From Pyrodictium occultum (GTDB lineage: Archaea; Thermoproteota; Thermoprotei_A; Sulfolobales; Pyrodictiaceae): DNA of 32,000 bases. The notes under the pieces are model-generated. The model was not told where the DNA came from. It worked only from the letters and a program-made list of their open reading frames with translations, and did no database searches. Below, one piece after another: positions 3,911 to 23,577 of this stretch. Both the position numbers and the translations under genes were made by a program. Position 1 is the first letter of the stretch. Each line of letters starts with the position of its first letter. The DNA lies in contig NZ_LNTB01000002.1 in NCBI RefSeq assembly GCF_001462395.1, forward strand, positions 78,836 to 110,835, in the 5' to 3' direction.

Positions 3911-3928
3911 CAGGCCCCGGGAGGGAGG

Positions 3929-3937
3929 CTTTTAACC
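3929..3937. promoter_or_regulatory. Candidate bidirectional TATA-like box
   Basis: cttttaacc is the only A/T patch between the divergent flippase (GTG 3910) and the 143-aa gene (GTG 3982). On the minus strand TTAAAA lies about 25 nt upstream of 3910, consistent with a leaderless archaeal transcript. Confidence 0.3.
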
Positions 3938-3981
3938 CCCGCCGCCCCACGCCGCCCGCACAGGCCGGAGGGGCCCCGGGA

Positions 3982-4413: not shown

Positions 4414-4469
4414 AGCCCCCCGGGAGCCGTGAAGGCCCACAGCCCAGAGACGGCAGGCACCGGGGCAGC

Positions 4470-4596
4470 GGACACAGCCCTGCTAGAAGCCGCCGAGCCC
4501 CACACAGACGAGCATAACACGGCAGCACGGACTACGACATGCAGGAAACAGTGCCAGACACGCCAGCAGTGGACACAGCCCTGCTAGAAGCCGCCG
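4470..4596. repeat. Perfect 26-bp direct repeat (ggacacagccctgctagaagccgccg) at 4470..4495 and 4571..4596
   Basis: Read directly from the sequence; copies are offset by 101 bp. The second copy encodes residues DTALLEAA at the N-terminus of the GT2 gene (ATG 4539). The first copy encodes the same peptide in a short GTG-initiated upstream ORF (4429..4587). Confidence 0.85.
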
Positions 4597-5693
4597 GGGC
4601 AGCCCTCGCAGCCATACACTTCGGGGTGCCCCTAGCCTACTACTTGTACCTCAGGAGGGCCTGGCTCCGCAGGCCCTGGGGGCTGAGGAGGGACCCCGGG
4701 TACACGCCCAGGGTGGTAGTGGTAGTGCCGACCTACAACGAGGCAGACCTCATAGAGCGTAAGCTCGACGACATCTACAGGCAGGACTACCCCCGCGAAA
4801 AGCTCGAAGTAGTGGTAGTGGACTCAGCCAGCACCGACGGCACCCCGGAGAAGGCTAGAAGGTGGGCCTCCAAGCACCCAGACCTAAAGGTCAGGCTCGT
4901 AGAGGAGCCCGCCAGGAGAGGCAAGGCGCACGCGCTAAACACAGCGCTAAAACACATCCCGCCAGACGCCGAGGTCGTAATCCTAACCGACGCAGACTCG
5001 TTCTGGCCCCAGAGAGACACGGTAAGGAGGGCCGTAGCCTACCTGGCAGACCCCACCGTGGGCGCCGTCTCCTGCCTCAAGAAGCCGGCGGGCCAGGGCC
5101 CCGGGGGCGTCGAGGAGGCCTACAGGAGCCTCTACAACCAGGTAAGGCTCGCAGAGAGCAAAGCCCACTCAACACCAATATTCCACGGGGAGCTAGCAGC
5201 CTACAGGAAGAGCCTCCTAGAAGAGATAGGAGGATTCCCGGAAGACCTCGGCGCAGACGACAGCCACACAGCAACCCTAATAGCGCTCAAAGGCCGCAGG
5301 GCGATAACACCCGAAGACGTATGGTGCACAGAGCTAGTGCCGAGAAAAGGCTACACCAGGTGGAGGATCCGCAGAGCGCAACACCTAACCCAACACTTCC
5401 AGAAAATCCTGAAAACAAGCCACAAAACACCAAGCCAGCTCAAGAGGATACTAGCAGTAGAGGCATACCTACACCTAGCCAACCCATGGCTACTACCAGC
5501 CGCCGCCGCACTACTAGCACTAGCCGCCGCCCACAAAAGCCCCTCAGCCATCATACTACTAGCCCTAGCCGCCGCGCTACTAGCGTACAAGCCGTACAGG
5601 ACGTGGATAACAACACAACTATACCTCACAGCAGCAATGATAAGAAACCTACACACAAAGGAGATAACATGGGAAAAGCAGACCAAACAGTAA
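4539..5693 (+). CDS. Integral-membrane GT2 glycosyltransferase (synthase-like, NodC/IcaA/cellulose-synthase-type architecture)
   Basis: An N-terminal TM helix is followed by VVVVPTYNEADLIERKLDDIYRQDYP, VVVVDSASTDGT, ILTDADS (DxD), GADDSHTA and RWRIRRAQH (a Q/RxxRW-like motif). C-terminal TM helices follow. Confidence 0.75.
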   Translation: MQETVPDTPAVDTALLEAAGAALAAIHFGVPLAYYLYLRRAWLRRPWGLRRDPGYTPRVVVVVPTYNEADLIERKLDDIYRQDYPREKLEVVVVDSASTDGTPEKARRWASKHPDLKVRLVEEPARRGKAHALNTALKHIPPDAEVVILTDADSFWPQRDTVRRAVAYLADPTVGAVSCLKKPAGQGPGGVEEAYRSLYNQVRLAESKAHSTPIFHGELAAYRKSLLEEIGGFPEDLGADDSHTATLIALKGRRAITPEDVWCTELVPRKGYTRWRIRRAQHLTQHFQKILKTSHKTPSQLKRILAVEAYLHLANPWLLPAAAALLALAAAHKSPSAIILLALAAALLAYKPYRTWITTQLYLTAAMIRNLHTKEITWEKQTKQ

Positions 5694-5713
5694 AAGGGCG
5701 GGTTCCAGAACCC

Positions 5714-6784
5714 ATGAAGATACTCTACATAACTCCTAGATACTATCCGCATATAGGTGGTGTGGAGTATGTAGTGAAGTCTGTCGCTGAGAGGCTGGTT
5801 AGATGGGGGCATAAAGTTGCTGTGTTCTCTGGAGAACCCAATATAGAGATTCCTAAGGAAGATAATGTCAATAATGTACATGTAATTAGGTGGCCTGTAT
5901 GGAGCCCCTCTAATGCTTATCATGTACCGAGAAAAAAGACCTTGTTTGAAAGAATGTTGGAAAATCTGCTGGATGATATAGATGTACTTCATATTCACAA
6001 CATACATAGTGTTTTAACATATTATGCATGGAAAATTTGGAGACGAAGAAAAAACTGCAAGTTGATTTTAACGCCTTATTATCATGGAACAGGTCATACA
6101 GTAATTAGGAGAATGTTGTGGATCGGATGGAGAAGAATAATTAGAAGGATAATAAGAGATGCATATAGGGTTCATACAGTATCGCAATTAGAAGCTTCAT
6201 TGATATCAAGAGATTTCCAGGTGCCGGCTGTACCGATCGAAAACGGGGTTGAAGAGAAAGTTAAAAGGCTCAATTGGAAACCTAGCAATTATGTTCTTTA
6301 TGCAGGTAGGATTGAGAAATATAAAAATATTCATAGGCTAGCTAAAATAATATTGATGCTTAATAAGAAATATGGATATGATCTTAGCTTTATGGTTATT
6401 GGTGAAGGCCCATATAGAGAAAAGCTTAAAAAATATTTAGATAATATAGGAATCAATTATGTGATCTCACACTTTAAACCATATGAGGAATACCTCAAAA
6501 TACTTTCGCAAGCATACTTCTTTGGATTGCTATCTGAAAAGGAATCTTATCCTCAGAGTGTGAATGAGGCCAATGCCATTGGAGTACCGGTGGTTATAGC
6601 AAAACCTTGGGGAGCAAATTTTAATAAAAGAAGGAGAACATTAATAATTGATCCAGAAAGCAATAGTGAGGTTTTAGCCATGAAAATAAGCGAATTCTTA
6701 AAACAAGTAGCTAATGAGCCTAGATCTAATGTCCCTACATGGGATGAGATCGCTAAAATATACATTCAAAAACTGTATAGCTAG
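5714..6784 (+). CDS. GT4-family (GT-B) glycosyltransferase
   Basis: Starts MKILYITPRYYPHIGGVEYVV and has a C-terminal E-x7-E (ESYPQSVNE) followed by AIGVPVV. The ORF-track entry 4862..6784 is this gene plus a spurious 284-codon upstream extension in an alternate frame of the GT2 gene. Confidence 0.75.
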   Translation: MKILYITPRYYPHIGGVEYVVKSVAERLVRWGHKVAVFSGEPNIEIPKEDNVNNVHVIRWPVWSPSNAYHVPRKKTLFERMLENLLDDIDVLHIHNIHSVLTYYAWKIWRRRKNCKLILTPYYHGTGHTVIRRMLWIGWRRIIRRIIRDAYRVHTVSQLEASLISRDFQVPAVPIENGVEEKVKRLNWKPSNYVLYAGRIEKYKNIHRLAKIILMLNKKYGYDLSFMVIGEGPYREKLKKYLDNIGINYVISHFKPYEEYLKILSQAYFFGLLSEKESYPQSVNEANAIGVPVVIAKPWGANFNKRRRTLIIDPESNSEVLAMKISEFLKQVANEPRSNVPTWDEIAKIYIQKLYS

Positions 6785-6795
6785 GTGACAATTTT

Positions 6796-7743
6796 ATGAG
6801 GGGAAAAGCATTAATCACTGGTGGTGCGGGCTTCATCGGTAGCCACTTAGTTGATAGACTCCTCAAAGAGGGGTGGGCTGTAAGAGTAGTCGATAATTTT
6901 AGCTCGGGCAGGTATAGTAATCTAGCTCATCATAGAGACAATCCTATGTTGGAAATAATTAGAGGAGACCTCAAGGATGCTGAGACAAGTATGAGGGTCG
7001 TAGAGGGGGTTGACGTCGTTTTCCACTATGCTGCCAATCCTGAAGTTCGCGTGAGCACTACAAACCCCGATATACATTTCAATGAGAATGTAGTGGCCAC
7101 TTTTAACCTCCTAGAAGCTATGAGGAAGAAAGATATTAGGAAGCTCGTCTTTGCATCCTCTAGCAGCGTCTATGGTGAGCCTGAGAAAATACCGGTTAGT
7201 GAAAACGCACCGATAAAACCAGTATCCGTTTATGGGGCTAGTAAAGCTGCATGCGAGTCGCTAATACATGCATATAGTAAGCTATATGGGATAAAATCCG
7301 TTGTTCTTAGATACGCAAATGTCGTAGGACCTAGGCTTAGACACGGCATCATATACGATATAATTCAGAAACTAAGGAAAAATCCGAGAAGGCTAGAAGT
7401 CTTAGGCGATGGAACACAGGTTAGGAGCTACATCTATATCACAGATGCCATCGAGGCCACAATGCTTACCTTCAAAAACATGAATGATTATTTTGAAGTA
7501 TACAATATAGGAAACGAGGACTGGATCACGGTAGACGAGGTAGTAAATGTAATTATAAAAGTTATGGGGCTAAGTAATGTAGAGATAATCCATAAGCCTA
7601 TAGCCCATGGAGTAGGATGGCCAGGTGATGTGAAAAGAATAGCGCTTAGTATTGAGAAGCTGAAAAGCTTAGGATTTAAACCAAGAATGAATAGTATAGA
7701 ATCTGTGAAGGAGGCGGCCAAGCATGTCGCAAATGAACCCTAA
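6796..7743 (+). CDS. NAD-dependent nucleotide-sugar epimerase/dehydratase (extended SDR, GalE-like)
   Basis: Carries TGGAGFIGSHLVDRLL, ASSSSVYGEP and YGASKAACE (YxxxK). AGGTGA lies 8 nt upstream of the ATG and is Shine-Dalgarno-like. Confidence 0.8.
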   Translation: MRGKALITGGAGFIGSHLVDRLLKEGWAVRVVDNFSSGRYSNLAHHRDNPMLEIIRGDLKDAETSMRVVEGVDVVFHYAANPEVRVSTTNPDIHFNENVVATFNLLEAMRKKDIRKLVFASSSSVYGEPEKIPVSENAPIKPVSVYGASKAACESLIHAYSKLYGIKSVVLRYANVVGPRLRHGIIYDIIQKLRKNPRRLEVLGDGTQVRSYIYITDAIEATMLTFKNMNDYFEVYNIGNEDWITVDEVVNVIIKVMGLSNVEIIHKPIAHGVGWPGDVKRIALSIEKLKSLGFKPRMNSIESVKEAAKHVANEP

Positions 7744-8419
7744 AGTATCAGCCATAAACTCTATTCTTAGCCGGTTAAGACTGGCTCGTGACTCAAAGCT
7801 TTTAGACATAGGTTGTGGCGACGGTAGTTTAACTATCCTTATTGCTAATAAGCTTAAAGTAAGTGAAATATATTGTATCGATGTAGACGAAAACGCATTA
7901 AGTATAGCTAATAAAAAGGGTATAATTACTTTCAAGCTTGACATAAGCAGAGATGATCTTCCTTTTCCAGAAAATACTTTTGATCTATGCCTTATGCTTG
8001 ACGTGATAGAACATCTTGAAAACCCAGATCATGCACTTAGAGAAGCTTATAGAGTCCTAAAAAGAGGGGGATACTTACTGATCACAACTCCGAACATGGC
8101 TTCATGGTATAATCGTTTACTACTACTTCTCGGAAAACCTATCCTAGGCATTGACTTATCTAAAGAGTTTAGGTACAGGTACCCTCTTGGTGTAACACAG
8201 GTTATATCTGGACACCTAAGGCTTTACACCCTAGATGCACTTAGGAAGATGCTCTTTTATCACGGATTTAGAGTAAAGTATGAAGCCGGATATCCACAGG
8301 TCTTCTCAAAAACTCAGGTAAAGGGCTTCATACGCCTGGTTAGGCTTCTAGATGCATCTATCGCGCGCATCAGCAAGACCTGGGCGGCTAACCTATTAGT
8401 GTTAGCTGTTAAGAGCTGA
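7724..8419 (+). CDS. Class I SAM-dependent methyltransferase
   Basis: Carries LLDIGCGDGSL (motif I), LMLDVIEHLENP and LKRGGYLLITTPN. It overlaps the upstream gene by 20 nt; the alternative ATG at 7733 overlaps the upstream stop. Confidence 0.75.
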   Translation: MSQMNPKVSAINSILSRLRLARDSKLLDIGCGDGSLTILIANKLKVSEIYCIDVDENALSIANKKGIITFKLDISRDDLPFPENTFDLCLMLDVIEHLENPDHALREAYRVLKRGGYLLITTPNMASWYNRLLLLLGKPILGIDLSKEFRYRYPLGVTQVISGHLRLYTLDALRKMLFYHGFRVKYEAGYPQVFSKTQVKGFIRLVRLLDASIARISKTWAANLLVLAVKS

Positions 8420-8420
8420 C

Positions 8421-10178
8421 ATGTCGGTATTATCACTACTCCAAACACCACTAGTTCTATACACAGTTATCCTGACCATTACTTGGTTCTCCCTATTGGT
8501 GATTTCAGAGATCGCCCCCATAAAACCTAGTCTCAGCCCGAAAACTAGTAACAGACTAATGCATTCAATTTTTATAATTTACATTTTTATAACAATATTT
8601 TTCATCAAATTAAATTTAGTCTTGTATCCATATTTACATGCGATTATGATCGCACTCATTCTCTTACTCATACTAGGATCAATGCAGCATAATCCAAAGT
8701 CTTTGCTCTTGGTAGCCCTCTCTACAGCTATAACGCCCATAATAGTCATGACATCTACAAAGCACCCGCTTCCACTAGGTGATGACGCACGCTTCATTGG
8801 GTTCGCCCAAGCCATCTATAGAGATGGGAGATGGATACCGTTCAAATACCAGGAAAACACGTACTATCAGCCATTCCATCTAATACCTTTCCTCGAATAT
8901 ATTCTAGCAGTATTGCTAGGCCTCAACTTAAAAAACATTGAAGCATACTATCTCCTCCTAAAATTTAGCCTCTGGCTCACTTATATGATCTCCACTTACC
9001 TAGTTATAAAGAACTTAAGTAATGATTACTCTAAGTCATTAGTAGGTATACTGCTTCTATCTATAACTCCCCCAATCGCTCTAACCCAGGTAGTTCACCA
9101 AGCTTATGCGATAGTGCTTTTCCTGATAACAGCCTCAGTATTAGTGAAGGAAATAAGGGTTAGGCAGAGCTTAAACACACTGTTCCTAGTTATAATAGTA
9201 TTATGGATTGCTGGAATAATTGCTCATGCAACCTATACTGTGATGTTTCTAGCATTCATTTTACCCCTCTTCTTAATAGAAAGGGAGGGGGTTTCTAAGA
9301 AAAACATTGCATTGCTCTCAGCAACACTAGTATCAATTAGCATCATTTATTGGACATACCTATACATGCTTGACGAGATTGTACGATCAACAATAAGTGC
9401 TACGACAAGACTCATAGATTTACTAATAGGGAGAACACCGTTCTCCCCCTTCCATGGAACAGCAAAACCCTGGTACACGTCATCTACATCAACATTTTTC
9501 ATAGCCTGGGCCTTTGTTCCCTCCATAGTAGCCTCATACATACTCCTTCTCCTTTCAAAAATAATATTTAAACATTGGAAATACTCTTGGAGTTTCATGG
9601 AACTGTTAGGTTTTCTAGGATTAAGCGGAACAGCCGTAAACTATATCTTACGCGCTCTCTCCACTTTTGGCGGCAGGTACTTCTACTGGCTATACATACT
9701 AATGATCCCGCTGGCAACTATGGTAGTAAAGAAAGTATCAAGAAGCCCACTCAGTCTATTACCCTCCATAATCCTGATCTCCACGGCTGCGTTTTACGGC
9801 ATACAGGATCCAACAATGGCTGCTAACACTTATGGAAACTATATTGGCTGGGCAGACAGAACCAGCTGGCATATAGCCCTAGAGCTACAGCCATACCTTG
9901 GCCACAGAGCATCCAAATGGATCGATCCAAGACTGTCAGCACCACTAAGCTCCACAGCTCCGCTACCAGCAGGTAATGGGAGAATCAACTATCAGCAAAA
10001 GGTAGCAATAATAGGTGTTGATAAGGTAGGATTGAAAGGCGCCTCAAAGGACCCACGTAATGTAGACTGGTTTATAAGAAATTTCAACGTAGAACCACAT
10101 AACATCATGAATAAGCTAGACGAATTTAGTGTAATTCTAAACATCGACAAATATATCGGGATATGGGGAAACCCTTGA
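8421..10178 (+). CDS. Polytopic membrane protein, probable GT-C-type (ArnT/PMT-like) lipid-phosphate-sugar-dependent glycosyltransferase
   Basis: 585 aa with about 12 or more TM segments plus a ~120-aa C-terminal soluble domain. The first loop, GDDARFIGFAQAIYRDGRWIPFKYQENTYYQPF, resembles the D-[DE]-x-R-[YF]...G-x-W...Y-x-[KQ]-P signature of GT-C enzymes. This is recalled from memory and needs an HMM check; a Wzy-type polymerase is the alternative. Confidence 0.5.
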   Translation: MSVLSLLQTPLVLYTVILTITWFSLLVISEIAPIKPSLSPKTSNRLMHSIFIIYIFITIFFIKLNLVLYPYLHAIMIALILLLILGSMQHNPKSLLLVALSTAITPIIVMTSTKHPLPLGDDARFIGFAQAIYRDGRWIPFKYQENTYYQPFHLIPFLEYILAVLLGLNLKNIEAYYLLLKFSLWLTYMISTYLVIKNLSNDYSKSLVGILLLSITPPIALTQVVHQAYAIVLFLITASVLVKEIRVRQSLNTLFLVIIVLWIAGIIAHATYTVMFLAFILPLFLIEREGVSKKNIALLSATLVSISIIYWTYLYMLDEIVRSTISATTRLIDLLIGRTPFSPFHGTAKPWYTSSTSTFFIAWAFVPSIVASYILLLLSKIIFKHWKYSWSFMELLGFLGLSGTAVNYILRALSTFGGRYFYWLYILMIPLATMVVKKVSRSPLSLLPSIILISTAAFYGIQDPTMAANTYGNYIGWADRTSWHIALELQPYLGHRASKWIDPRLSAPLSSTAPLPAGNGRINYQQKVAIIGVDKVGLKGASKDPRNVDWFIRNFNVEPHNIMNKLDEFSVILNIDKYIGIWGNP

Positions 10179-11287
10179 AGATTCTTTTCCAAACAATAGG
10201 TGTTTTAATACAATATAATTGGGCTTTACCATACTATTTGAGTAGAGAGGACGTTAAAATTACTCTCATAACGAATATGTTTTCCTACTTTATGGGCGGG
10301 TATTATTACCACTTTAAAGCACTTAATAAGCTAACACCGCTTTTCACGGGCTTCGGGTTACCTTATACCCAGCAATACGACAAAAATATTACCAGTAACA
10401 TTCCAGTAGGTAGGCTTAGTAGAGGATCTGATGTAATCCATCTTAATGATTCAAAAAATCCTCTTACGAAAAGACTGTTAAATGTAGATAAACCTAAGCT
10501 TTTCTTCCTTCATGGATCGCTAGATATAATAAATCTAGCTAATCCGCCTAAAGAATTAGAGGAAATAAGATCTAAAGTTGATGCGTTCGTGGTTGCAAGC
10601 AATCATGCCGCCTATACTGTTAGGAGAGTGCTCGGGTTCACGCCGATAGTTATACATCACGGCATAGATACTATGATATTCAACCCCTTCAATATCACTA
10701 AGCAGAGAGCGAGAGAAAAACTGTCAATACCATTGAATAAAAGGGTTATATTATAGGTCGCCCGGATAAGCCCTGAGAAAAACCTCCAGATGGCCATCAA
10801 AGCCCTCCCACATGTGGTTAGTGAGGATAAAGATGTTCTACTGGTAGTTAAAGGGAGAACAGTAGATAGAAAGTATTTGGGTTTCATTCTCAAGCTGATT
10901 AAGAAGCTAAATGTGAGTAAATATGTAAGATTTGATTTCAAATGGAGCCCCAACGTGACTATGGTCTATTATTATTATCGGGCTGCAGATGTTTATGTAC
11001 ATACATCCTTGTCCGAAGCTTTTGGCTCCCTAACACTCTTAGAAGCTATGGCTTCAGGGACGCCAGTAGTAGCAAATAACGCTTCAAGCATCCCTGAAGC
11101 CGTTGGTAATGCTGGCCTACTAGTAAACTCAGAGGAAGAACTAGCTGAAAAGATTCTAGAAATACTGCATGATGATAGCCTAAGACGCAAACTATCTAGA
11201 GAAGGCTTTAGAAGAGTTATCGAAAATTTTTCGTTAAAAATAACTGCTAAGAAATATCTACAACTATATAGAAAATTGATGGGTTAA
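10163..11287 (+). pseudogene. GT4 glycosyltransferase split by a single in-frame TAG (10754..10756)
   Basis: ORFs 10163..10756 and 10790..11287 are in the same frame. The 11 codons after the TAG read VARISPEKNLQ with no stop, so the junction ...NKRVIL*VARISPEKNL... restores the canonical GT4 'vGR.s.eKn' motif. The C-terminal half has SLSEAFGSLTLLEAMASGTPVV. An alternative start at TTG 10175 overlaps the upstream TGA. Confidence 0.7.
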
Positions 11288-11305
11288 AAAGGTGTAAGCA
11301 AGGAC

Positions 11306-11818
11306 GTGGTGCTAGTTAGCATAGTAATATTAAACTACAATTGTAGTTTAATATTACATTGTGAAGAGTACTTGAACAGATTGCTTGGAAGTTGCTCTAT
11401 ATTAACTACTAGAGGACATGCTTTTGCTGTTCTTATACGGAGGGAGACAGTTATAGATTGGAAACCACGACATGATCTTTCAGCACTTGAGACCTTCAGC
11501 CTTGCACAACATATATTATCTAAGGGATACCTATGGATAGAGCTTTTTAAACCCTGTTGTATTCATCTAAAGGAGCTAAAATATGGAGCAGGTATAAGCC
11601 GTTATTTTAGACAAGGTCTTTGGGAAGGTGCAGGGGCTAGACTTGTAGGAATCAAGAAAAGACATATGCTTGAGGAAGTTGTTGCTAGATTATTAGGAGG
11701 GGTCTTAACCGCTTTAATTACTCATGATGTAAAACATTTAGCTAATAATACAGCTTTAAGACTAGGGCTACTTCTAGGTTATCTTGTACCTTATAAATTC
11801 AGAGTCTGGCGTAGATGA
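11306..11818 (+). pseudogene. GT2 glycosyltransferase remnant (apparent internal deletion of the catalytic core)
   Basis: 170 aa. The N-terminus VSIVILNYN is the usual GT2 opening strand, but within ~30 residues the sequence is already at a late-GT2-like segment (RGHAFAVLIRRETV) and a helical tail. No DxD region is present. GTG start. Confidence 0.4.
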
Positions 11819-11900
11819 AATGTTTTGTGTCACAGCGTTGTTCGGAAATAAAAATTCCAGTTTATTAAACTAAGACAGCGTATTTAGTGAAAAGTCCAAG

Positions 11901-13106
11901 TTGAAAATACTTATTATCTCAGAGCCCTTTTGGCCTAAGGGTAGCGGAGGTCCTCTAGCCACTTATCTTATAACTAGGATTCTAGCAAGGAATAGAGACT
12001 TTAATATAACTGTTGTTATTGGCACTGAGAAATCGGCTAAGATAAGAAACGTTGAATTCATTGTGGATCCTATGCTTAGAGCTTCAAATAAGGTAAAGTT
12101 GTTACTAAGACTTACTAATCCTGTGGTAAGGCATAAATATGAGAAGCTTATAAAAAAATTCGATATATTGTATATTCCATCATACTCCCCCTGTGGTTAT
12201 CCTCTAATACCTATTGCTAAGAGGCTTGGGAAGAAGGTGGTTGTTCACCTCCACGACTACCAGCCCTTCTCCTACAACTCCGTCATACCGGCAGGCCGCC
12301 ACGGTAGTGTTTTGAATGGTGTCAGCTACGAGGCCCGGTACGAGGTTTACGAGCATGGCAGCGTTGGGAGGGCTGTCCTGGGATCCCTGGCGACCCCTCT
12401 CATAGGTCTTTACAGGCTGTGGGTTAGACAGGCGGATGCAGTCGTATGCGTCTCAAGGAGGCAGGCGGAAATAGTGGCTGAGATAGCGCCAGAGCTTAGG
12501 GGCAGGATCAGGGTCGTATACAACCCCCTCCCAGACGTCCCCCCAACGGAGAAGAGGCTTGGAGACCCCGCCTTCCTATATCTAGGCGGTGACAGCTACA
12601 TTAAGGGGTTCCATGTTCTCCTGGGCGCTTCCCGGAAAATCCTGGAGCATTATCCCAATGTAGAATTCCTGCTAGCCGGGAGATTCAGGGATTCAAGCAG
12701 GCTCCTCGTCGAGAAGCTGAACAGAAGGTTTAATGAAGCATATAGGGTGCTAGGCTACCTGAAGCATGAAGATATTGTAAGGCTTCACGGAGAGAGCTAC
12801 GCCCTCCTCTTCCCATCAGTAGTCGAGGAGCCCTCGCCATACGCTGTCCTCGAATCCATGCTGGCCGGGACGATACCAATAGCTTCGAGGGTGGGCGGGG
12901 TCCCCGAGATAGTTGAGGGTACACCCGCCGAGAGAATGCTCTTCACGCCAGGCGATGCAGGCGAGCTAGTGGACCGTATCGAACACGTTTTATCCTTCTC
13001 CAAGGAGCAGCTAGTCGATATGGGGTTTAAGCTGAGGGAGTCTGTCACGAGGAAGTTTAATAACGAAAGAATTAAGCGAGAGCTGATGAAAGTGTTTACT
13101 ATATAA
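11901..13106 (+). CDS. GT4-family glycosyltransferase (compositionally chimeric)
   Basis: Starts MKILIISEPFWPKGSGGPLATY. Carries GGDSYIKGFHVLL and E-x7-E (EPSPYAVLE) plus AGTIPIASRVGGVPEIV. TTG start. GC changes from about 33% to 53-60% near 12235 inside the intact ORF. Confidence 0.75.
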   Translation: MKILIISEPFWPKGSGGPLATYLITRILARNRDFNITVVIGTEKSAKIRNVEFIVDPMLRASNKVKLLLRLTNPVVRHKYEKLIKKFDILYIPSYSPCGYPLIPIAKRLGKKVVVHLHDYQPFSYNSVIPAGRHGSVLNGVSYEARYEVYEHGSVGRAVLGSLATPLIGLYRLWVRQADAVVCVSRRQAEIVAEIAPELRGRIRVVYNPLPDVPPTEKRLGDPAFLYLGGDSYIKGFHVLLGASRKILEHYPNVEFLLAGRFRDSSRLLVEKLNRRFNEAYRVLGYLKHEDIVRLHGESYALLFPSVVEEPSPYAVLESMLAGTIPIASRVGGVPEIVEGTPAERMLFTPGDAGELVDRIEHVLSFSKEQLVDMGFKLRESVTRKFNNERIKRELMKVFTI

Positions 13107-13300
13107 ATGTGTGGGATAATGAGGCCGGCAGACCAGACTAATACCTATAATACTGACGGCAACTATACCTACGTTTTTCACAGCCCAGGGATCGAGCCGT
13201 GGGTTCCAGGCCTTCTGAAGGCGAGGCACTCTCTAGGCAGATAAACTTAGAGAAAGGTAAAACGCTAACAATGTACAATATTACGTTAATGAAAATACTC

Positions 13301-13315
13301 TTTAATATTTATAAG
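13301..13315 (+). promoter_or_regulatory. Candidate TATA box/promoter for the 13371 gene
   Basis: tttaatatttataag lies about 55-70 nt upstream of ATG 13371. GGTGA (13362..13366) lies 5 nt upstream of the ATG as a Shine-Dalgarno-like element. Confidence 0.35.
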
Positions 13316-13370
13316 AAGAGGGCGGGAAGCAAGCTTTACTTGATATCGTTTAAGGTTAAAGGGTGATAGT

Positions 13371-14321
13371 ATGAAAGTTGTGACGCTACCCGTTTTAAGC
13401 GTCGCAGTTTCTGGGGGCCGTGTATATGCTCTATTAAAGGAGTCAGATGGTAGGCTCTCCCTGGCTTCTTTCAACCGTGAACTGGAGGTTGAGGACAAGC
13501 TTGCAGCTCTAAAGGGTTCTAGAGGCTTTGTACTGGATGCATGGAGAGATTCCCTCCTGTTCTCAGTAGATAATAAGCTCTACGCCTTAAGGGGTGGTGA
13601 GGTTAAAAGTGTCCTTAGGGCTCACCTGCCGGTTAACATCTTCTGGCATGCAACTAGAGCGAATGGACACGTCTATGTCCAGGAGTATGGAGAGAGCCCT
13701 ACGGGAATATTTGAGCTGGATAGGGATTACGAGAGCTCTCGGCTATTGATCACTAATAGGGATCTCGATAAAGGCTCTAAGCACTTTCACAGCGTAGTGT
13801 ATGATCCGTTTAGAGGCTGGCTAGTAGCCACGCTCGGGGATGGGAATTTATTGAGAGTTGCTGTCTCAGCTAATGGCGGGGAGAACTGGCGCCCTCTCTA
13901 CAGGGGTCCCTGGCAGTTCGTCCCCATCGTTCCTTTGAAGGATACAATCGTGTTCGGTATGGATAGCGGGATTGCGAGGGGTGGTGTAGGGATATATTAT
14001 CCTAGCAAGAAGAGGTGGAGGTTCATATTTCTTAAATGGATTAATGAGAGAGTTAAGCTTGCCCAGATGAGTGATTTGAAGCTGCTAAGCAATGGTTTAT
14101 GGGTAGCTGCTCTAGGCACTCCTCAGGCGATAGTTGTCTCTAAAGATTTGAAAACATGGTATCCCCTATATGTTGAGGGGTTTGATGAGCATTTTAACCA
14201 CTATATGCAGGTGAGTGTGGGAGAGGACTTCATAGCGTGTTCAACAGGTAGAAGCCTTCTGGTGTTTAGGAAAGACGAGGTATATAATGCTTTGAATAAG
14301 AGCGAACCTGCAATGGCTTAA
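13371..14321 (+). CDS. Hypothetical protein, possible beta-propeller with degenerate Asp-box (BNR-like) motifs
   Basis: 316 aa, beta-rich by eye. SANGGENW and SKDLKTW resemble the S-x-D-x-G-x-T-W Asp-box. No clear signal peptide. Confidence 0.5.
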   Translation: MKVVTLPVLSVAVSGGRVYALLKESDGRLSLASFNRELEVEDKLAALKGSRGFVLDAWRDSLLFSVDNKLYALRGGEVKSVLRAHLPVNIFWHATRANGHVYVQEYGESPTGIFELDRDYESSRLLITNRDLDKGSKHFHSVVYDPFRGWLVATLGDGNLLRVAVSANGGENWRPLYRGPWQFVPIVPLKDTIVFGMDSGIARGGVGIYYPSKKRWRFIFLKWINERVKLAQMSDLKLLSNGLWVAALGTPQAIVVSKDLKTWYPLYVEGFDEHFNHYMQVSVGEDFIACSTGRSLLVFRKDEVYNALNKSEPAMA

Positions 14322-14343
14322 AGGCATAGTAAGGTTTAAGATG

Positions 14344-14376
14344 AGAGTTCGTCATAGCCATTATATGACGAACTTT
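14344..14376 (+). terminator. Stem-loop followed by a T-rich tract downstream of the 13371..14321 gene
   Basis: Perfect 11-bp arms agttcgtcata (14346..14356) and tatgacgaact (14364..14374) with a 7-nt loop; extendable by G-T and A-T pairs. It is followed by tttgtgttg and begins 23 nt after the stop codon. Confidence 0.35.
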
Positions 14377-14461
14377 GTGTTGAGCCATGGAATATAAGAA
14401 AATGCTATTAATAGCTGCTACGGCTACAGTTATTGGACTTAAGGAGCTTGATTCTAGGAGT

Positions 14462-14518
14462 ATTTTCTAAGCTGTCTGATCTTCTAACAAAGAATCGTCT
14501 CAAACGAGCTTAGAAAAT
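14462..14518. repeat. 12-bp inverted repeat (attttctaagct / agcttagaaaat) with a 33-nt spacer
   Basis: Read directly: 14462..14473 pairs with 14507..14518. It lies in the 413-nt spacer upstream of the P-loop gene. Confidence 0.6.
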
Positions 14519-14734
14519 TATACTTTAATGAAGCCCTAAGGAGGGGAAATGCCGAACTCAGAAAAAGATTCTAGAAAAACATATAATCTATCTACAAGAT
14601 TAGTGGATGCGTCGGAAGAAAAACACGGACCCATATTGATACGTTGTATTTGTTCTAAAAGGGCAAAAGATAGAGGAATCTTAGTGAGAGGGCTGATGTA
14701 GGCATATACCTCGCTAAAAAGGGGAAAGCTAGCC

Positions 14735-15376
14735 TTGCCGAGGAGGCATATAATTGTGTTTGTTGGCCATGTTGGGGCTGGCAAAACTACACAGGCAAAA
14801 TATTTAGAAGCATATTTAAAGAAAAGAGGTCAAAGATCAAAGTTTACTTATTTGAAAACATATTTTGTTTTTACAAATAACTTACTGCGAATATTTAGAA
14901 GAATGAATATTAGTAGAATAGGTCTCTATTTTATTCATCGGTTGCTGGTTGTACTGGACCTAGTAATTAATGTCTTTATTCTTCCTCTTTTAGCCTTATT
15001 TAGAGTTAGAATACCTTCTAAGTTTTACAAATACATTCTTATTGAGGAGTATTTGCCTGGAATTCTTGTGGATTATGTTCATGCGAAATTAATACTTAGA
15101 TTAAATAAGAAATTCTTAATGAGGGCTATGCATGTTTTACTCAGACTTCTCTACATCGACTCAACAACGATCATATTAGTGTGCAATGCTCAATCCCTGC
15201 CGTACCGCTGGAAGGCTAGAAATACTCCTCCAGAAGCACCCTCTTACCTCAAGGTGCAAGAGAAAGTATTTACCCTATGGAGTAAACACGTGGAAAACAC
15301 TTTTTACGTATCTACTGAAGGAAGAAGTGTCAAGGAAACGAATCGAGAAATAAGAAAGCTGTTAAATATTCCTTAG
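14735..15376 (+). CDS. P-loop NTPase, nucleotide/nucleoside-kinase-like (Tmk-like N-terminus) with a hydrophobic insertion
   Basis: IIVFVGHVGAGKTTQAKYLEAYLKKRG contains Walker A and resembles the thymidylate-kinase-type opening. A ~35-residue hydrophobic stretch follows (IGLYFIHRLLVVLDLVINVFILPLLALF). TTG start. Confidence 0.55.
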   Translation: MPRRHIIVFVGHVGAGKTTQAKYLEAYLKKRGQRSKFTYLKTYFVFTNNLLRIFRRMNISRIGLYFIHRLLVVLDLVINVFILPLLALFRVRIPSKFYKYILIEEYLPGILVDYVHAKLILRLNKKFLMRAMHVLLRLLYIDSTTIILVCNAQSLPYRWKARNTPPEAPSYLKVQEKVFTLWSKHVENTFYVSTEGRSVKETNREIRKLLNIP

Positions 15377-15401
15377 TTTAAAAATTGAGGTACTTAGGGA
15401 A

Positions 15402-16607
15402 ATGAAGCCTCTTATAATAGCACCAAATGATCTAAGGATACGTGAAGGCACGACTATAAGGATTACAGGGCTTATAAAGAGTATTGCCCCCAATATGGAG
15501 AAAATATATCTTGCCTCAGCGTTCATAAACAAAGAGTTATCCCAACTACATAATTTAGAGTGGGTTAAGATTAGATTCCTAAGAGCATTAACATTACTAT
15601 CCATAAATTATTCAAGCATTATGTCGAGGCATTTCTTTGATATTGGTTTAACACGTATCATGATAAATAAGGAAATACGTGACGCTGACGTAATTCATGC
15701 TCATTGGATTCTCACCTTACCCTTAGCGGTAGGTATTCATAAATATAATGGAGCCCCCATAATTGTAGACCTTCACGGGCTTTTCGAGCTCCAATCCCAA
15801 AGCCCATCCATTTCTCTTGCAGGCTGGCTCTTAGTTAACCTGTCTAGGATAATTGAGGTAATGCGCGTGAGAGATAAATACATAGAAGCCTTCACTGTTC
15901 CCTCGGAGCCCCTTAAGCAATATCTTATACGCAGGTATGGACTGCCAGGTGACAAGATATTTGTGGTTCCAGATGGTATAGACATTAATGATATCCCTAG
16001 TTATGATGAGGATCTCGCTAATCAAATGAGGAACATGCTTGGCATAAAAGATGAGCATGTGGTTGCCTATGTGGGAACAGTATCGTATTTCCATGGGTTT
16101 CACGATTTACTGAAGGCTTTCAAAATAGCTAAGCACCGCATAGAAAACATAAAACTGCTACTCATAGTTCCAAACAGAGTACAAGCACTTAATATAGCGG
16201 GCAGAACCGGCATAAGTGATCAAGACCTCATAGTTCTCGAAAATATTCCCCGGAGAAAAATATACTATTACCTCTACCTATCCGACGTTCTCGTAATACC
16301 CCACAGAGCCGGTACTCAGTTCGAGTTCCTACCCTCCAACAAGCTTCTCGACTATATTGCTTCAGGCAAGCCTATAGTAGGCTATGATCTGCCAAGCATC
16401 AGACATCTTCTATACAAGTATGAGCCGAAAATACTAGTTAAACCTAATGATCCAGAAGCCCTAGCCTCTGGAATAATAAATGCTCTTCAAATAAACAGAC
16501 GGGCACCATATAAGGTTATTAAAGCAGTCTTAAGTAAATATTCATGGAATAACGTAGGAAAGCAATTACTAAGTGTTTACAGGAGGGTTAAGGGAGGTAT
16601 TAGATAA
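15402..16607 (+). CDS. GT4-like (GT-B) glycosyltransferase
   Basis: 401 aa. Has the HAHWILTLPLAV / VDLHG N-domain pattern, VAYVGTVSYFHGFHDLLKAF and FLPSNKLLDYIASGKPIVG in the C-domain. TGAGGT lies upstream of the ATG. Confidence 0.65.
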   Translation: MKPLIIAPNDLRIREGTTIRITGLIKSIAPNMEKIYLASAFINKELSQLHNLEWVKIRFLRALTLLSINYSSIMSRHFFDIGLTRIMINKEIRDADVIHAHWILTLPLAVGIHKYNGAPIIVDLHGLFELQSQSPSISLAGWLLVNLSRIIEVMRVRDKYIEAFTVPSEPLKQYLIRRYGLPGDKIFVVPDGIDINDIPSYDEDLANQMRNMLGIKDEHVVAYVGTVSYFHGFHDLLKAFKIAKHRIENIKLLLIVPNRVQALNIAGRTGISDQDLIVLENIPRRKIYYYLYLSDVLVIPHRAGTQFEFLPSNKLLDYIASGKPIVGYDLPSIRHLLYKYEPKILVKPNDPEALASGIINALQINRRAPYKVIKAVLSKYSWNNVGKQLLSVYRRVKGGIR

Positions 16608-18100
16608 ATGATCTCGGTGATCGTAGTTTACAATGATGTAAGGATACTAAACGAGTGGTTATTAGAGAGTTTGAAGAATCAAAGTGCAGATTATGAGCTT
16701 ATAGCACTAGATAACAGGAAAGGCGATTTTCCTTCAGCTGCTAATGCCTACAACTATGGAGGCTTAAGGGCACGTGGCGACTATCTAATGTTTGTTCATC
16801 AAGACGTAAGATTATTGGGGAATACTTGGATTGAGGAGGCGGAGAGAATTCTACGGAACTTGCCTAAGCTAGGTGCTGCAGGTGTGGCTGGAAAAAGATG
16901 TGATATTCGTGGAGTTATAACTAATGCTATTCATGGTGTTCCACCGCGACCGGCTGGTCAGATAAGAATATCAAAACCTGTGAAGGTTCAAACGCTAGAT
17001 CCCCTGCTTATAATTGTGCCGAGAAAAGTTTTCCAGAGATTAAAGTATGATGAACATACATGCAACGGATGGCATCTTTATTCCATTCCGAGGATTACTG
17101 CCTCACCTTACAAAGGGAGGGGTTCAACTGTTATGTGCTACCACTTCCCGTTTATCATCGGTCAACAGGTGTAAAGCCGAAGAAAAGAAAACTCATTGAC
17201 TACGGCCCTTATCCTGATGAATACTATGCGATACTTAAAAAAGTGTTAAGGAAGCATAGGCTCCATTACCGTAAGATATGCACGACTTGTGGGGACTACT
17301 ATACATTTATACCTCTTTTTATCCAATTGACTCTGCCGAGAGTAATGAAGACTATCTTCTTGAGACTGTTTGGATCAAGCTTACGGTTATTGATTAGGAG
17401 CTGGCTGCTCAGGAATTTCGTTACAGCCTACTTTACGGCCAAGTATAGGAGGCTGTTGAGGGAGGGTGTAAGCTTAGATGACCTAATAGACTTTGCCTTT
17501 GAATTTGTTGGCCTACCACTAGTAAAGTCTCACCAATTGTCGGATATCGACCTTATCAACGCGTTAACCATAAGGCCTGCCCAAGTAAAGGAGGAAATCC
17601 GAGAATTCCTGAGCATACTGCAGAAAATAAGACCTAAAATCATTCTGGAGATAGGCACTGAGCGAGGGGGGACACTATTCCTGCTCAGCCAGGTAGCGGA
17701 TGAAGATGCCACACTCATATCCATAGACTTACCATGGGATAACCGAGCATCCAAAGGCCATAGCTTCGGCTTCAGCTATCCACCATGGAGAGAGAAACTT
17801 TACAGGTCATTTGCTAGGGGCAATCAGAAAATATATCTCCTAAGAGGGGATTCACACTCGCAAGCGACCCTAATGGAGGTCAAAAGAATCCTCAGAGGGA
17901 GAAAACTGGACGTCTTATTCATAGATGGGGATCATACTTATGAGGGTGTTAAGAAGGATTTTGAAATGTATTCTCCACTAGTTAAAAAAGGAGGTATAAT
18001 AGCTTTCCACGACATTGTCCCACACCTGCCTGAAACCGGTTGTGAGGTAAACAAATTCTGGAACGAGATTAAGAATAACTATAAATATCTCTTGAGATAG
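16608..18100 (+). pseudogene. GT2-like glycosyltransferase fused to a CmcI/TylF-like class I methyltransferase, frameshifted by a 5-bp tandem duplication
   Basis: ORF 16608..17174 (ISVIVVYND..., FVHQDV...) and ORF 17060..18100 (EDYCLTLQREGFNCYVLPLPVYHRSTG..., ILEIGTERGGTLFLL, FIDGDHTYEGVKKDF, GGIIAFHD) overlap in different frames. attccattcc at 17080..17089 is (ATTCC)x2. Deleting one copy gives a continuous ...GWHLYSEDYCLTLQ... ORF. Confidence 0.65.
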
Positions 18101-18139
18101 TTTGAGGATTGGAACCAGAAGTGGGCGGAGATAGGTGTC

Positions 18140-18826
18140 TTGTGTCATGTATCTGTACTAGAGTTCTTTATTGAATACGCGAGAGCAGAGGAGTTTAAGG
18201 GTAAAAAGGTATTAGAGGTTGGAAGTAGATATGTTAATGGAAGTGTGCGTCCGTTGATTGAGAAATATTTCCAACCTAAAGAATACATTGGAGTGGATAT
18301 AGAGCCCGGTAAGTTTGTAGACCTGGTGTTGCCTGCTGAAAGGCTCCTAGAATACTTTGGCCCGGAATCTTTTGACGTGGTGATTAGTACGGAGTTGCTT
18401 GAGCACGTCGTTGATTGGAGGCTTGTAGTAAATAACATGAAGGGTGTGCTGAAACGTGGGGGATACATTTATATCACGACTAGATCTAGAAGTTTCCCTT
18501 ATCATGCCTATCCTTACGATTTCTGGAGATATGAAATTGAGGACATGAAAAGGATCTTCGCTGATTTCAACATTATAAAATTAGAAAAGGATCATCAGGC
18601 TCCTGGGGTCTTTCTTAAGGCCAAGAAGCCAGAGAACTATGTACCAGCTGACTTGTCGAACATAGCGCTTTACTCTATAATATTAGGGAGGAGAACAAGA
18701 GACATTCCAGATATTGGCGATGCTCCACTTATTAGGAGGCTTATCCTTAGACTATTAAGTTCTAAGGCCAAGTGGCTACTGCCAGGAGGCTTATTACGTC
18801 TCATAGAAAAGAAAATCGTGGTTTAA
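18140..18826 (+). CDS. Class I SAM-dependent methyltransferase (Methyltransf_11-like)
   Basis: Carries KKVLEVGSRYVNGS, FDVVISTELLEHVVDW and LKRGGYIYITT. TTG start assigned by the ORF finder. The frame is continuous with the upstream ORF except for TAG 18098..18100. Confidence 0.7.
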   Translation: MCHVSVLEFFIEYARAEEFKGKKVLEVGSRYVNGSVRPLIEKYFQPKEYIGVDIEPGKFVDLVLPAERLLEYFGPESFDVVISTELLEHVVDWRLVVNNMKGVLKRGGYIYITTRSRSFPYHAYPYDFWRYEIEDMKRIFADFNIIKLEKDHQAPGVFLKAKKPENYVPADLSNIALYSIILGRRTRDIPDIGDAPLIRRLILRLLSSKAKWLLPGGLLRLIEKKIVV

Positions 18827-18988
18827 GTACTTAGTTCTTTATCAAAGAATCGTTGTTATATTAGGCTTATCCACAATATAAAATTTAATTTATTCAAGCT
18901 TCACAATTTATTTTATCTACCAGCAAGCTATCAAAACGCTAAAATAGGAGAGTAGAATATTATCTAAGAACGTAAGTTAAAGATTAGT

Positions 18989-19653
18989 TTGGGTGCGAAG
19001 GAATTGAAGACAATAATTGTTCTGGGGATGGGTAGGTCTGGAACCTCGATGGTAGCTGGGATTCTGCACATACTCGGGGTTAACATGGGCGAGAGGCTCC
19101 TCGGGGCCCACTGGTCCAACCCTCTAGGCCACTTCGAGGACCTTGACTTCGTCGAGTTGAACGAGGAGATCCTGAGGGCGGCCGGTGGGAGCTGGGACAA
19201 CCCCCCGGCCCGGGAGGCGATCCTGGCGGTCGCCCCACGCTTCTACGATAGGATAAGGCCGCTCGCGGAGGAGGAGAGGAGGAGGCACGAGGTGTGGGGC
19301 TGGAAGGATCCCAGGACCTCCCTCACCGTGGAGCTGTACCTCCCCCACCTCGAGAACCCCTACTTCATAGTGTGCCACCGCGACTGGGAGGCTATAGCGC
19401 GCTCCCTCAAGAGGAGGGATGGGATGAGCATAGAGAGGGGGTCTGGCTGGCCAGGGTGTGCTATGAGAGGGTTGAGGAGTTCTTCAGGGAGCACCCGGGC
19501 CTCAGAAGACTGGACGTTCGCTACGAGGACTTCATAGCCGGCCCGGAGGCTCACGTCAGGAGGATAGCCTCGTCCATAGGCCTGGAGCCCGGTGAGGAGA
19601 GGATCAGGAGGGCCACTGCCTTCGTGCTCTCCCCGGGGAGAGGGAGAGGCTAG
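18989..19653 (+). pseudogene. Sulfotransferase-family protein, frameshifted at a G5 run (19437..19441)
   Basis: Frame 2 gives IIVLGMGRSGTSM (5-prime-PSB-like P-loop), WGWKDPRTS (3-prime-PB-like) and CHRDWEAIARSLKRRDGMSIERG. Frame 1 continues VWLARVCYERVEEFFREHPGLRRLDVRYEDFIAGPEAHVRRIASSIGL. One extra G in the run joins them. TTG start. Confidence 0.65.
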
Positions 19654-19777
19654 TCAGGAGGATGAGGAGGGAGGAGATGGCCCGAAGGATCGTCAGGGGC
19701 TTGACGAACCCGAGGAAGGCGCTCAGGTACATTATGGGGAGGCTCCTGGGGAGAAGGTAGCCGGCTCACGGCCCCCG

Positions 19778-19783
19778 TTTATA
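19778..19783 (+). promoter_or_regulatory. Candidate TATA box for the rml block
   Basis: tttata in otherwise GC-rich DNA, about 40 nt upstream of TTG 19821. Confidence 0.3.
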
Positions 19784-19820
19784 CCCTGCCCGCCGCCCTG
19801 CCTCCCCCGGGGGCTCAGCG

Positions 19821-20897: not shown

Positions 20898-20912
20898 CGC
20901 CGATACTGGAGT

Positions 20913-22837: not shown

Positions 22838-22864
22838 ATCCTCCGGGAACCCCGAGCCGTTCTG

Positions 22865-23446: not shown

Positions 23447-23577
23447 TGCCCCCGGACAGCGGTCTTGCCGCGGCTGTTGCTGCCGGCGTTGCTGTGCGGC
23501 TTCCCTTGCTGCTACCGCTGCTGCCCTGCGGGGGCTGTCCGGCGGGGGTGGTGGCGTTCTCGTGGCCCCGGGGCGTC

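Follow-up and report, generated by a model that had tools for sequence, protein, structure and literature searches.

Pyrodictium occultum PL19T very probably carries, at 5607/5694-19024 of the stretch analysed here, a strain-variable glycan cassette that was imported from archaea of low G+C (GC) content and is swapped through recombination in its flanks. The stretch, hereafter the window, comprises 32,000 nt (positions 78,836 to 110,835 of contig NZ_LNTB01000002.1, assembly GCF_001462395.1) and is a cell-surface glycan biosynthesis supercluster. A preliminary description made from the sequence alone had interpreted this block as DNA of a low-GC donor that took the place of the variable centre of a glycosylation locus, and this proposal is supported by a sister strain, which has another gene set between the same anchors. 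A chimeric metagenomic assembly, named there as the trivial alternative, is not the issue because the PL19T DNA came from a pure-culture isolate. According to the genome announcement, this culture was grown at 105 °C, and 22.5 million MiSeq reads of 276 nt were assembled with SPAdes into 14 contigs, reduced to two by manual superassembly, giving a genome of 1.6 Mb with 63.4 % G+C (PMC4767911). Exact-sequence searches assign proteins of the flanks and of the island to P. occultum, on a single contig of 120,479 bp with CF15_ locus tags. Our literature search found no description of this island in Pyrodictium, and the announcement is silent on it (PMC4767911).

The GC content is 0.409 over 5694-19024 (13,331 nt) and 0.670 in the rest of the window, confirming the low-GC island described earlier; likewise, a recount of the four 60-nt lines counted by hand at the time returned identical values (48, 34, 18 and 19 GC). 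In windows of 500 nt, the 25 windows of the island (6001-18500) range from 0.33 to 0.55 and the 36 flank windows from 0.61 to 0.77, so that the ranges are disjoint. Codon usage, proposed as a check, also separates the island from its flanks: GC at third codon positions (GC3) is 0.23-0.55 in island genes and 0.69-0.95 in flank genes, GC at first and second positions (GC1 and GC2) is shifted too, and amino acid usage follows, island and flank genes differing in their FYMINK (0.23-0.37 versus 0.08-0.22) and GARP (0.20-0.29 versus 0.30-0.46) fractions.

The limits of the island were placed by a maximum-likelihood two-segment scan. The left change point lies at 5607 (support 5578-5636), around 90 nt 5′ of the stop codon of a glycosyltransferase family 2 (GT2) gene. 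The positions given earlier for this stop (5691-5693) and for the ATG of the following family 4 (GT4) gene (5714) are right, but the switch does not fall exactly in the spacer between them, as had been thought. The right change point lies at 19024 (support 19017-19089), i.e. 35 nt into a sulfotransferase open reading frame (ORF) starting at 18989, and is sharper than the transition over about 18830-19090 first reported.

The strongest indication that the block is exchanged comes from a relative of PL19T, namely a 54-kb Logan contig from run DRR667394, which was assembled independently and was reached via a 96 % match of the RmlA-like flank gene; its species placement is by flank identity only. 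Two overlapping stretches of this contig, merged to 39 kb, were compared with the window by blastn. The two sequences are 99.4 % identical over window positions 457-4715, 88.8 % over 4539-5895, 95.8 % over 19019-20898 and 99.5 % over 22878-30945, while no DNA similarity is found between 5895-19019 of the window and 11310-27391 of the relative, except for two patches of about 110 nt. Between the GT2 and the sulfotransferase, the relative harbours 16 kb of other glycan genes, mostly at 0.32-0.48 GC, including GT4/GT1, GT2, Methyltransf_21, polysaccharide deacetylase and sulfatase genes. The synteny check suggested earlier thus gave the same anchors, near-identical outer flanks and a different centre. 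Low-GC DNA, although with other genes, also occupies this site in the independently assembled relative, so that such a block belongs to the biology of the lineage and is no product of a single assembly.

Strain identity in 200-nt windows is 100 % across most of the outer flanks and drops beside the variable segments. On the left it is 95 % at 4452-4715; within the anchoring GT2 gene it runs at 96-100 % up to 5388, falls to 74-88 % in a patch at 5389-5588, is 94-96 % up to the stop codon, and then declines to 54-70 %, fading within the first GT4 gene. On the right it is 92.5 % at 19019-19212 and 97.5 % at 22878-23277, and the last 290 nt of the RmlA gene (20612-20898), next to a second strain-variable module, are 76-85 % identical. 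This second module (20898-22878) consists of two short-chain dehydrogenase/reductase (SDR) genes that are non-orthologous between the strains (29-50 % amino acid identity) and high-GC in both. The right breakpoint is the sharper one, since identity rises from background to 92-100 % at 19019-19028, a few bases from the GC change point. As the jump lies there, the start codon and first ~10 codons of the sulfotransferase, together with the AT-rich spacer before it, belong to the cassette, and the remainder of the gene to the conserved flank.

Several further features of the two strains were noted. At its positions 4268-9971, the relative carries a 5.7-kb insertion that is missing from the window; on either side of it, the first ~177 nt of the GT2 gene occur as a direct duplication. 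The insertion encodes a DUF4276 protein and an AAA_15/AAA_21 ATPase, which form a candidate defence pair, as well as a PIN-like ORF, a low-GC TPR protein and a fragment of an epimerase. The cassette of the relative contains RmlD-like fragments on the minus strand that are 51-60 % identical to the gene of the window, and a GC-rich (0.61) patch at 16649-17327 with an HTH_23/HTH_Tnp_1-like ORF, a possible insertion sequence (IS) remnant. In the window, positions 4454-4495 and 4555-4596 form an imperfect direct repeat of 42 nt.

Gene functions were assigned by Pfam and NCBIfam domain searches, with one fold assignment by structure prediction. From left to right, the island and its boundaries comprise:
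5578-5713, no strand: left boundary zone, with the change point at 5607, the GT2 stop at 5691-5693 and a 20-nt spacer.
5714-6784, plus strand: GT4 'a', first island gene (PF13439, PF00534; GC 0.36).
6796-7743, plus strand: sugar epimerase/dehydratase dependent on nicotinamide adenine dinucleotide (NAD) (PF01370, E 2.8e-60; NCBI name UDP-glucose 4-epimerase).
7724-8419, plus strand: class I S-adenosylmethionine (SAM)-dependent methyltransferase (PF08241, E 3e-23).
8421-10178, plus strand: predicted 585-amino-acid membrane glycosyltransferase of the GT-C fold (no Pfam or NCBIfam match; AlphaFold2 and Foldseek).
10163-11287, plus strand: GT4 'b', pseudogene with an in-frame TAG at 10754-10756, the two halves of which match, in one frame, the N-terminal and the C-terminal GT4 domain.
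11306-11818, plus strand: GT2 remnant (no Pfam match; identity read from homologues).
11901-13106, plus strand: GT4 'c' (Pfam), at GC 0.49 above the rest of the island.
13371-14321, plus strand: conserved protein of 316 amino acids, predicted all-beta, with 44-46 % homologues beside GT4 'c' in environmental loci L015 and L019.
14735-15376, plus strand: P-loop protein of 213 amino acids (weak sub-threshold AAA_22 and dTMP-kinase P-loop matches), within a 94 % match to environmental contig L009.
15402-16607, plus strand: GT4 'd' (Pfam; 94 % DNA identity to L009).
16608-18100, plus strand: fusion of GT2_5 and Methyltransf_24/rhamnosyl-O-methyltransferase-like domains (PF13712, PF13578) in two overlapping frames.
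18140-18826, plus strand: class I SAM-dependent methyltransferase, last island gene (PF13489, PF08241).
18827-18988, no strand: AT-rich spacer of imported DNA (GC 0.26-0.31).
18989-19653, plus strand: right anchor, sulfotransferase (PF13469 on two frames), with the breakpoint in the first ~12 codons.

The cassette thus encodes four GT4 enzymes, two GT2-type enzymes, the sugar epimerase, three SAM methyltransferases and the GT-C enzyme. All island ORFs lie on the plus strand, as had been stated; the glycan-building role ascribed to all of them holds for most, three ORFs (11306-11818, 13371-14321 and 14735-15376) being without firm assignment. GT4 'a' is 42 % identical in amino acids to the GT4 at the equivalent place in the relative and 54-63 % to its equivalents in L014 and L015, and a 53 % homologue of the methyltransferase at 7724-8419 adjoins the GT-C gene in L016. 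GT4 'c' has 39-41 % homologues in L015 and L019 and matches the relative in short stretches of DNA at 73-77 %. L019 repeats the GC pattern of the window, in that its versions of GT4 'c' and of the 316-amino-acid protein are also GC-richer (0.47-0.51) than their neighbours. The 316-amino-acid protein had no match in Pfam, NCBIfam or a PDB sequence search, and its single-sequence structure model was poor (predicted local distance difference test, pLDDT, 42). Non-coding gaps of 264 nt (13107-13370) and 413 nt (14322-14734) interrupt the island, the latter with an imperfect inverted repeat at 14446-14473/14507-14534.

Four genes of the locus are broken, i.e. GT4 'b', the GT2 remnant, the GT2_5-methyltransferase fusion and the sulfotransferase. 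At the TAG of GT4 'b', intact homologues of 376 amino acids have Trp (TGG). The GT2 remnant has lost ~110 amino acids of its catalytic core, which is present with its DxD motif in full-length homologues of ~280 amino acids in L014 and L017, and a perfect 34-nt palindrome (11324-11357) marks the deletion site. Frame inspection places the frameshift of the fusion near 17090. Neither strain has an uninterrupted sulfotransferase frame, but the shifts differ: the window has +2 nt at 19432-19433 and the relative -1 nt at the position matching 19101. Two further indels in the strain alignment, of 6 nt (in frame) and 1 nt, lie at 19206 and 19630, respectively. Since the reads imply very deep coverage of the 1.6-Mb genome, the breaks are unlikely to be sequencing errors.

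Regarding the origin of the DNA, full homologue searches covered the epimerase and GT4 'd' of the island and RmlA of the flank. The epimerase has its closest matches, at 86 % identity, in Staphylothermus hellenicus and on Logan contig L003, all other matches being at or below 73 %, so that the best-hit check proposed earlier leads outside the Pyrodictiaceae for this gene: S. hellenicus (genome 36.8 % GC) belongs to another family, the Desulfurococcaceae. Vulcano, where P. occultum comes from, is also the isolation site of S. marinus F1, the sister species of S. hellenicus. L003 (40 % GC) carries the epimerase, a methyltransferase remnant and the 585-amino-acid membrane protein in the order of the window, with DNA identities of 79 % (epimerase) and 69 % (GT-C). 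Another Logan contig, L009 (40 % GC), is 94.3 % identical in DNA to 14682-16581 of the window (1.9 kb; the P-loop gene and GT4 'd') and then continues with different neighbours; the best non-self matches of GT4 'd' are 53-54 %, in metagenome-assembled genomes (MAGs) of Bathyarchaeia. For the flank RmlA, the best named non-self match is Infirmifilum, at 78 %. The epimerase scan of genome contigs returned five distant loci only, with neither P. occultum nor S. hellenicus among them, and searches of plasmids and viral contigs gave no match and identified no vector.

A metagenome scan with the 585-amino-acid protein yielded eleven contigs, all of 33-41 % GC and with the gene order of the island (40-71 % amino acid identity). 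The common order is GT4 'a', epimerase, (methyltransferase), GT-C, GT4 'b', GT2, the 316-amino-acid protein with GT4 'c', and the P-loop protein. Contig L012 additionally carries, just upstream and in the order of the window, homologues of both left-flank GT2 genes (47 and 56 %). Since both are present there in order, the flank GT2 genes and the island together form one widespread cluster type, which in P. occultum has edges of host composition and a centre of foreign composition. The unrelated environmental archaeon represented by L012 1-17366 and L011 (Ga0209410_1000565, Ga0116200_10001117) shows a change of its own, its GC falling from 0.45-0.52 to 0.33-0.39 near the epimerase/GT-C boundary and rising again at the far end. 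It therefore seems that the cassette type brings its low GC and its internal mosaicism with it.

Judged by these matches, the island appears to be a mosaic of at least two or three modules, probably a conserved GT4-epimerase-methyltransferase-GT-C-GT4-GT2 block, a P-loop and GT4 block with 94 % DNA identity to an environmental contig, and a GT2/methyltransferase tail. The earlier idea of a low-GC donor is thus supported in so far as the island genes have low-GC archaeal relatives, but not as regards a single donor.

The 585-amino-acid protein stands at the core of these cassettes. It belongs to a rare family, with 58 representatives among 1.84 billion sequences and no Pfam or NCBIfam match, and in the metagenome loci, which are low-GC archaeal contigs, its gene is always beside a GT4 gene and usually beside the epimerase. 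An AlphaFold2 model built from a family alignment of 33 members (pLDDT 87, predicted template modelling score, pTM, 0.90) matched STT3, AglB, ArnT, DPY19 and AftD/Emb in Foldseek (probability 1.0, TM score ~0.45). Because of these matches, the protein is predicted to be a GT-C-fold glycosyltransferase of an uncharacterised family. Enzymes of the GT-C class use lipid-phosphate-linked sugars at the outer face of the membrane. The acidic pair of a GDDARF sequence at residues ~119-124 is a candidate catalytic motif, matching the acidic motif that GT-C enzymes have in their first external loop; the invariant alignment columns start just after it, at W138, and W138 and H269 are near-invariant in the family. 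We do not call the protein AglB, since it lacks the WWDxG motif and no Pfam STT3 match was found in the window. The AglB/STT3 oligosaccharyltransferase that marks archaeal N-glycosylation (agl) clusters is accordingly missing from the window.

The flanks, of host-like GC, contribute the following:
1427-2638, plus strand: GT2 glycosyltransferase of the left flank (PF00535, E 3.7e-25; GC 0.70).
2411-3910, minus strand: polytopic membrane protein of 499 amino acids, left flank (no Pfam or NCBIfam match; gene also in the relative).
3982-4413, plus strand: ORF of 143 amino acids, hypothetical protein CF15_08265 (no family match).
4539-5693, plus strand: left anchor, membrane-bound GT2 (PF00535, E 1.6e-28; GC 0.59).
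19821-20897, plus strand: glucose-1-phosphate thymidylyltransferase (RmlA-like), right flank (96 % to the relative).
20898-22878, plus strand: second strain-variable module, an SDR epimerase/dehydratase and an RmlD-like reductase (Pfam; strain comparison).
22865-27291: conserved supply genes for RmlC, ATP sulfurylase, a phosphodiesterase-family protein and adenosine 5′-phosphosulfate (APS) kinase (minus strand) (Pfam; 99.5 % to the relative).

The GT2 at 1427-2638 is 100 % identical in the relative, and its 47 % homologue in L012 lies upstream of the same cluster type. A flippase role for the 499-amino-acid membrane protein is only a guess. The left anchor is 92 % identical in amino acids to P0133 of the relative and 56 % to its L012 homologue, and has weak sub-threshold NCBIfam matches to AglJ and dolichyl-phosphate hexose transferase.

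Considering composition and homology, the cassette would stem from low-GC hyperthermophilic archaea, with a Staphylothermus-like source for at least the epimerase and GT-C module. The identity pattern suggests that a cassette, once acquired by the species, passes from strain to strain through homologous recombination within the conserved genes on either side. Such recombination would explain both the fall in identity from 100 % to 76-95 % beside the replaced segments and the position of the breakpoints in or next to homologous genes instead of attachment sites. As to function, the enzyme families point to cytoplasmic GT4 and GT2 enzymes that would assemble a lipid-linked oligosaccharide from nucleotide sugars; the flanks would provide deoxythymidine diphosphate (dTDP)-rhamnose (RmlA, RmlC, RmlD) and 3′-phosphoadenosine 5′-phosphosulfate (PAPS; ATP sulfurylase, APS kinase), the methyltransferases and the sulfotransferase may decorate the glycan, and the GT-C enzyme may add a sugar from a lipid-phosphate donor at the outer membrane face. 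The product is most likely a methylated lipid-linked glycan, possibly with rhamnose and sulfate, for surface glycoproteins, and a cassette swap would then alter the glycan on the S-layer, the cannulae or other surface glycoproteins.

Several points weigh against this interpretation. The assembly was finished by manual superassembly from 14 to two contigs, and the junctions are those of this assembly. Long-tract homologous recombination is implausible for the first entry, in which DNA of a donor with ~40 % GC met a host with 67 %. The cassette of the relative holds an HTH_23 transposase-like fragment, and therefore mobile elements may contribute. Neither AglB nor a target glycoprotein lies in the window; full homologue searches cover two island ORFs, the epimerase and GT4 'd', the latter with a best match of only 54 %; and because four genes are broken, the glycan pathway of PL19T may be partly non-functional.

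It is extremely unlikely that the island is an artefact, i.e. contaminant low-GC DNA mis-joined in the SPAdes assembly or the Geneious superassembly. Finishing by hand offers an occasion for such a join, Illumina coverage often breaks at sharp GC switches, and a search with four exact window proteins in a contig index found no second assembly of the PL19T cassette across the junctions. Yet it was a pure culture, grown at 105 °C, that was sequenced, P. occultum sequence lies on both sides in one orientation and one functional locus, and the relative stays co-linear with the window across the left GC switch and for the first ~200 nt of low-GC DNA, after which its own low-GC block follows. The right junction, moreover, is in frame within the sulfotransferase, supplying the start codon and the N-terminal strand before the P-loop, and the adjacency of GT2, GT4, epimerase and GT-C recurs in the unrelated L012. 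A native origin, in which local mutation bias or selection (for example for expression control or recombination) would keep Pyrodictium genes AT-rich, is very unlikely as well. GC1, GC2 and amino acid usage are of the low-GC type too, a state that takes long residence in an AT-rich genome, and a native origin also conflicts with the 86 % match of the epimerase to Staphylothermus, the 1.9 kb at 94 % DNA identity to a foreign low-GC contig with other neighbours, the patchy cross-family distribution of the island genes, and the lack of shared DNA in the centre of strains with near-identical flanks (99.4-99.5 % overall). What speaks for it is that the cassettes of both strains are low-GC and that in L012/L011 the cluster centre (0.33-0.39) likewise lies between GC-richer flanks (0.45-0.52), so that low GC goes with the cluster whatever the host.

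A classical mobile element, such as an integrative element, a provirus or an IS composite inserted by site-specific or transpositional recombination, is an unlikely explanation, and the absence of an integrase, a transposase, a tRNA and a terminal repeat, already reported in the preliminary description, was confirmed. Pfam and NCBIfam revealed no integrase, recombinase or transposase domain in the ORFs scanned (at least 140 amino acids, 1-32000), ARAGORN no tRNA or tmRNA and Rfam no family in the window, and the repeat search no direct or inverted pair bracketing the island (5.6 kb/19.0 kb). Thus, the hallmarks of a classical integrative island, namely an integrase at the end and a tRNA-adjacent site with direct repeats, are lacking. 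Furthermore, no plasmid or viral contig matched, both strains hold functionally equivalent cassettes instead of an occupied and an empty site, and divergence fades away from the breakpoints as in recombination tracts. These observations have to be set against the compositional distance between donor and host, which seems too large for long-tract homologous recombination at first entry, the HTH_23/HTH_Tnp_1-like fragment in the cassette of the relative, the separate insertion of 5.7 kb that the same strain has between duplicated copies (177 nt) of the GT2 5′ end, and the 34-nt perfect palindrome marking a rearrangement inside the island.

The left edge of the cassette has a composition of its own. 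The 1.7 kb at 3982-5693 (the ORF 3982-4413 and the anchoring GT2) form a third compositional class with a GC of 0.59-0.62 and are depleted of T: at third codon positions T3 is 0.01, A3 0.21-0.31 and C3 0.41-0.48, and T is lowest at position 2 too. Only 2 of 385 codons of the GT2 are NNT, and in the ORF A3 is 0.21 and T3 0.01. Compared with the L012 homologue at codon positions 1 and 2, T>C changes outnumber C>T changes by 43 to 8 (P=7e-7) and A>G changes stand at 43 versus 28 G>A (P=0.10; Fisher P=0.005); in a control GT2, substitutions were symmetric. The depletion looks like the result of a T-to-C process acting on one strand. Other intermediate-GC genes in the relative have the same or the opposite asymmetry. 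Among other candidates, purine loading was rejected for the T-poor GT2, as C and not G is enriched on its coding strand. Neither selection against U-ending codons nor strand-specific adenine deamination fits all intermediate-GC genes, the GT2 at 23035-24081 of the relative showing the opposite pattern, and an A>T skew at 2500-4000 is due to the membrane protein on the minus strand (2411-3910) and not part of the anomaly.

It is tempting, if rather doubtful, to extend the idea of an imported and swapped cassette to a pool of low-GC cassettes built around the GT-C enzyme, which would move between hyperthermophilic archaea irrespective of host GC and undergo strand-asymmetric T-to-C amelioration at the cassette edge. 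The cluster is found in backgrounds of ~67 % GC (P. occultum), ~48 % (L012/L011) and ~33-40 %. Low GC would then be a property of the pool and not of one donor, and a T-to-C process at the edge would explain the T-poor stretch.

The organization of the locus recalls that of bacterial O-antigen and capsule loci, such as rfb of Escherichia coli and Salmonella between galF and gnd or cps of Streptococcus pneumoniae between dexB and aliA. In these, a low-GC central block of glycosyltransferase genes is surrounded by conserved nucleotide-sugar genes, with rhamnose genes at the edge, and serotype switching occurs by recombination in the flanks. The P. occultum locus similarly has a low-GC centre of glycosyltransferase and processing genes, with rhamnose genes at the edge of the variable region, but it differs in its archaeal host and in its predicted GT-C-based chemistry, and no Wzy, Wzz or Wzx was found by Pfam.

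The island fits an established type, i.e. replacement flexible genomic islands, or O-antigen-like cassette switching: the two strains have the same site and anchors, the same kind of function and a divergence gradient in the flanks, and mobility features are absent from the window. Replacement flexible genomic islands include O-chain, flagellar and S-layer glycan clusters, among them GI1 of Haloquadratum walsbyi (Lopez-Perez et al. 2014, PMC4033161; PMC4535781). As in GI1, different genes of equivalent function occupy the same chromosomal site without integrases. Flank divergence also rises beside both islands, the substitution density in H. walsbyi being 0.0097 genome-wide and ~0.10 beside the island (PMC4033161), and divergence here being 0-0.5 % in the outer flanks and 4-24 % near the breakpoints. 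In contrast to GI1, the host is a Thermoproteota archaeon of 105 °C and the GC contrast amounts to ~26 points; and whereas the H. walsbyi versions cluster with their host by tetranucleotide usage (PMC4535781), the P. occultum cassette has a foreign composition and a cross-family best match.

The closest archaeal parallel that we found is provided by strains 91-R6 and R1 of Halobacterium salinarum, in which divSEG18 carries N-glycosylation (agl) genes and aglB is 44 % identical over codons 1-18 and 98 % over the remainder (PMC7002104). In both cases the glycosylation genes are distant homologues on a strain-specific replacement segment and the breakpoint lies in the first codons of a gene, here after ~10 codons of the sulfotransferase, the rest of which is 92-100 % identical. 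Unlike divSEG18, which belongs to a halophile and has AglB as its junction gene, the P. occultum cassette is anchored by a GT2 and a sulfotransferase, with no AglB in the window.

Another large low-GC block in a high-GC archaeal chromosome is the 53-kb element of Haloferax volcanii (50.1 versus 66.7 % GC; XerC/D, VirB4/D4) (PMC2841640). That element is additive and mobile, with recombinases and transfer genes, whereas the P. occultum island encodes glycan enzymes only. The GC contrast, called unusual in the preliminary description, is greater at 26 points than the 16.6 points of the H. volcanii element, the only pair compared. Regardless, low-GC blocks may be fairly common in the P. occultum genome, because its mean of 63.4 % is below the 67 % of the flanks and the relative has a partly low-GC insertion of 5.7 kb nearby; from the two values, roughly 10-15 % of the genome would be expected to lie in such blocks. 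Frequent blocks of this kind would mean frequent imports, not that this island is native.

Taken as a strain-variable, imported cassette, the island provides a clean two-strain case of surface-glycan cassette switching, known before from bacterial O-antigens and from haloarchaea. Such switching would also operate at 105 °C, with DNA taken from another family of archaea. With 26 points of GC between cassette and host, it is unusually simple to follow how AT-rich genes are imported, ameliorated and expressed in a GC-rich hyperthermophile. Finally, the comparison brings to light a rare family of predicted GT-C glycosyltransferases that is conserved at the core of these cassettes.

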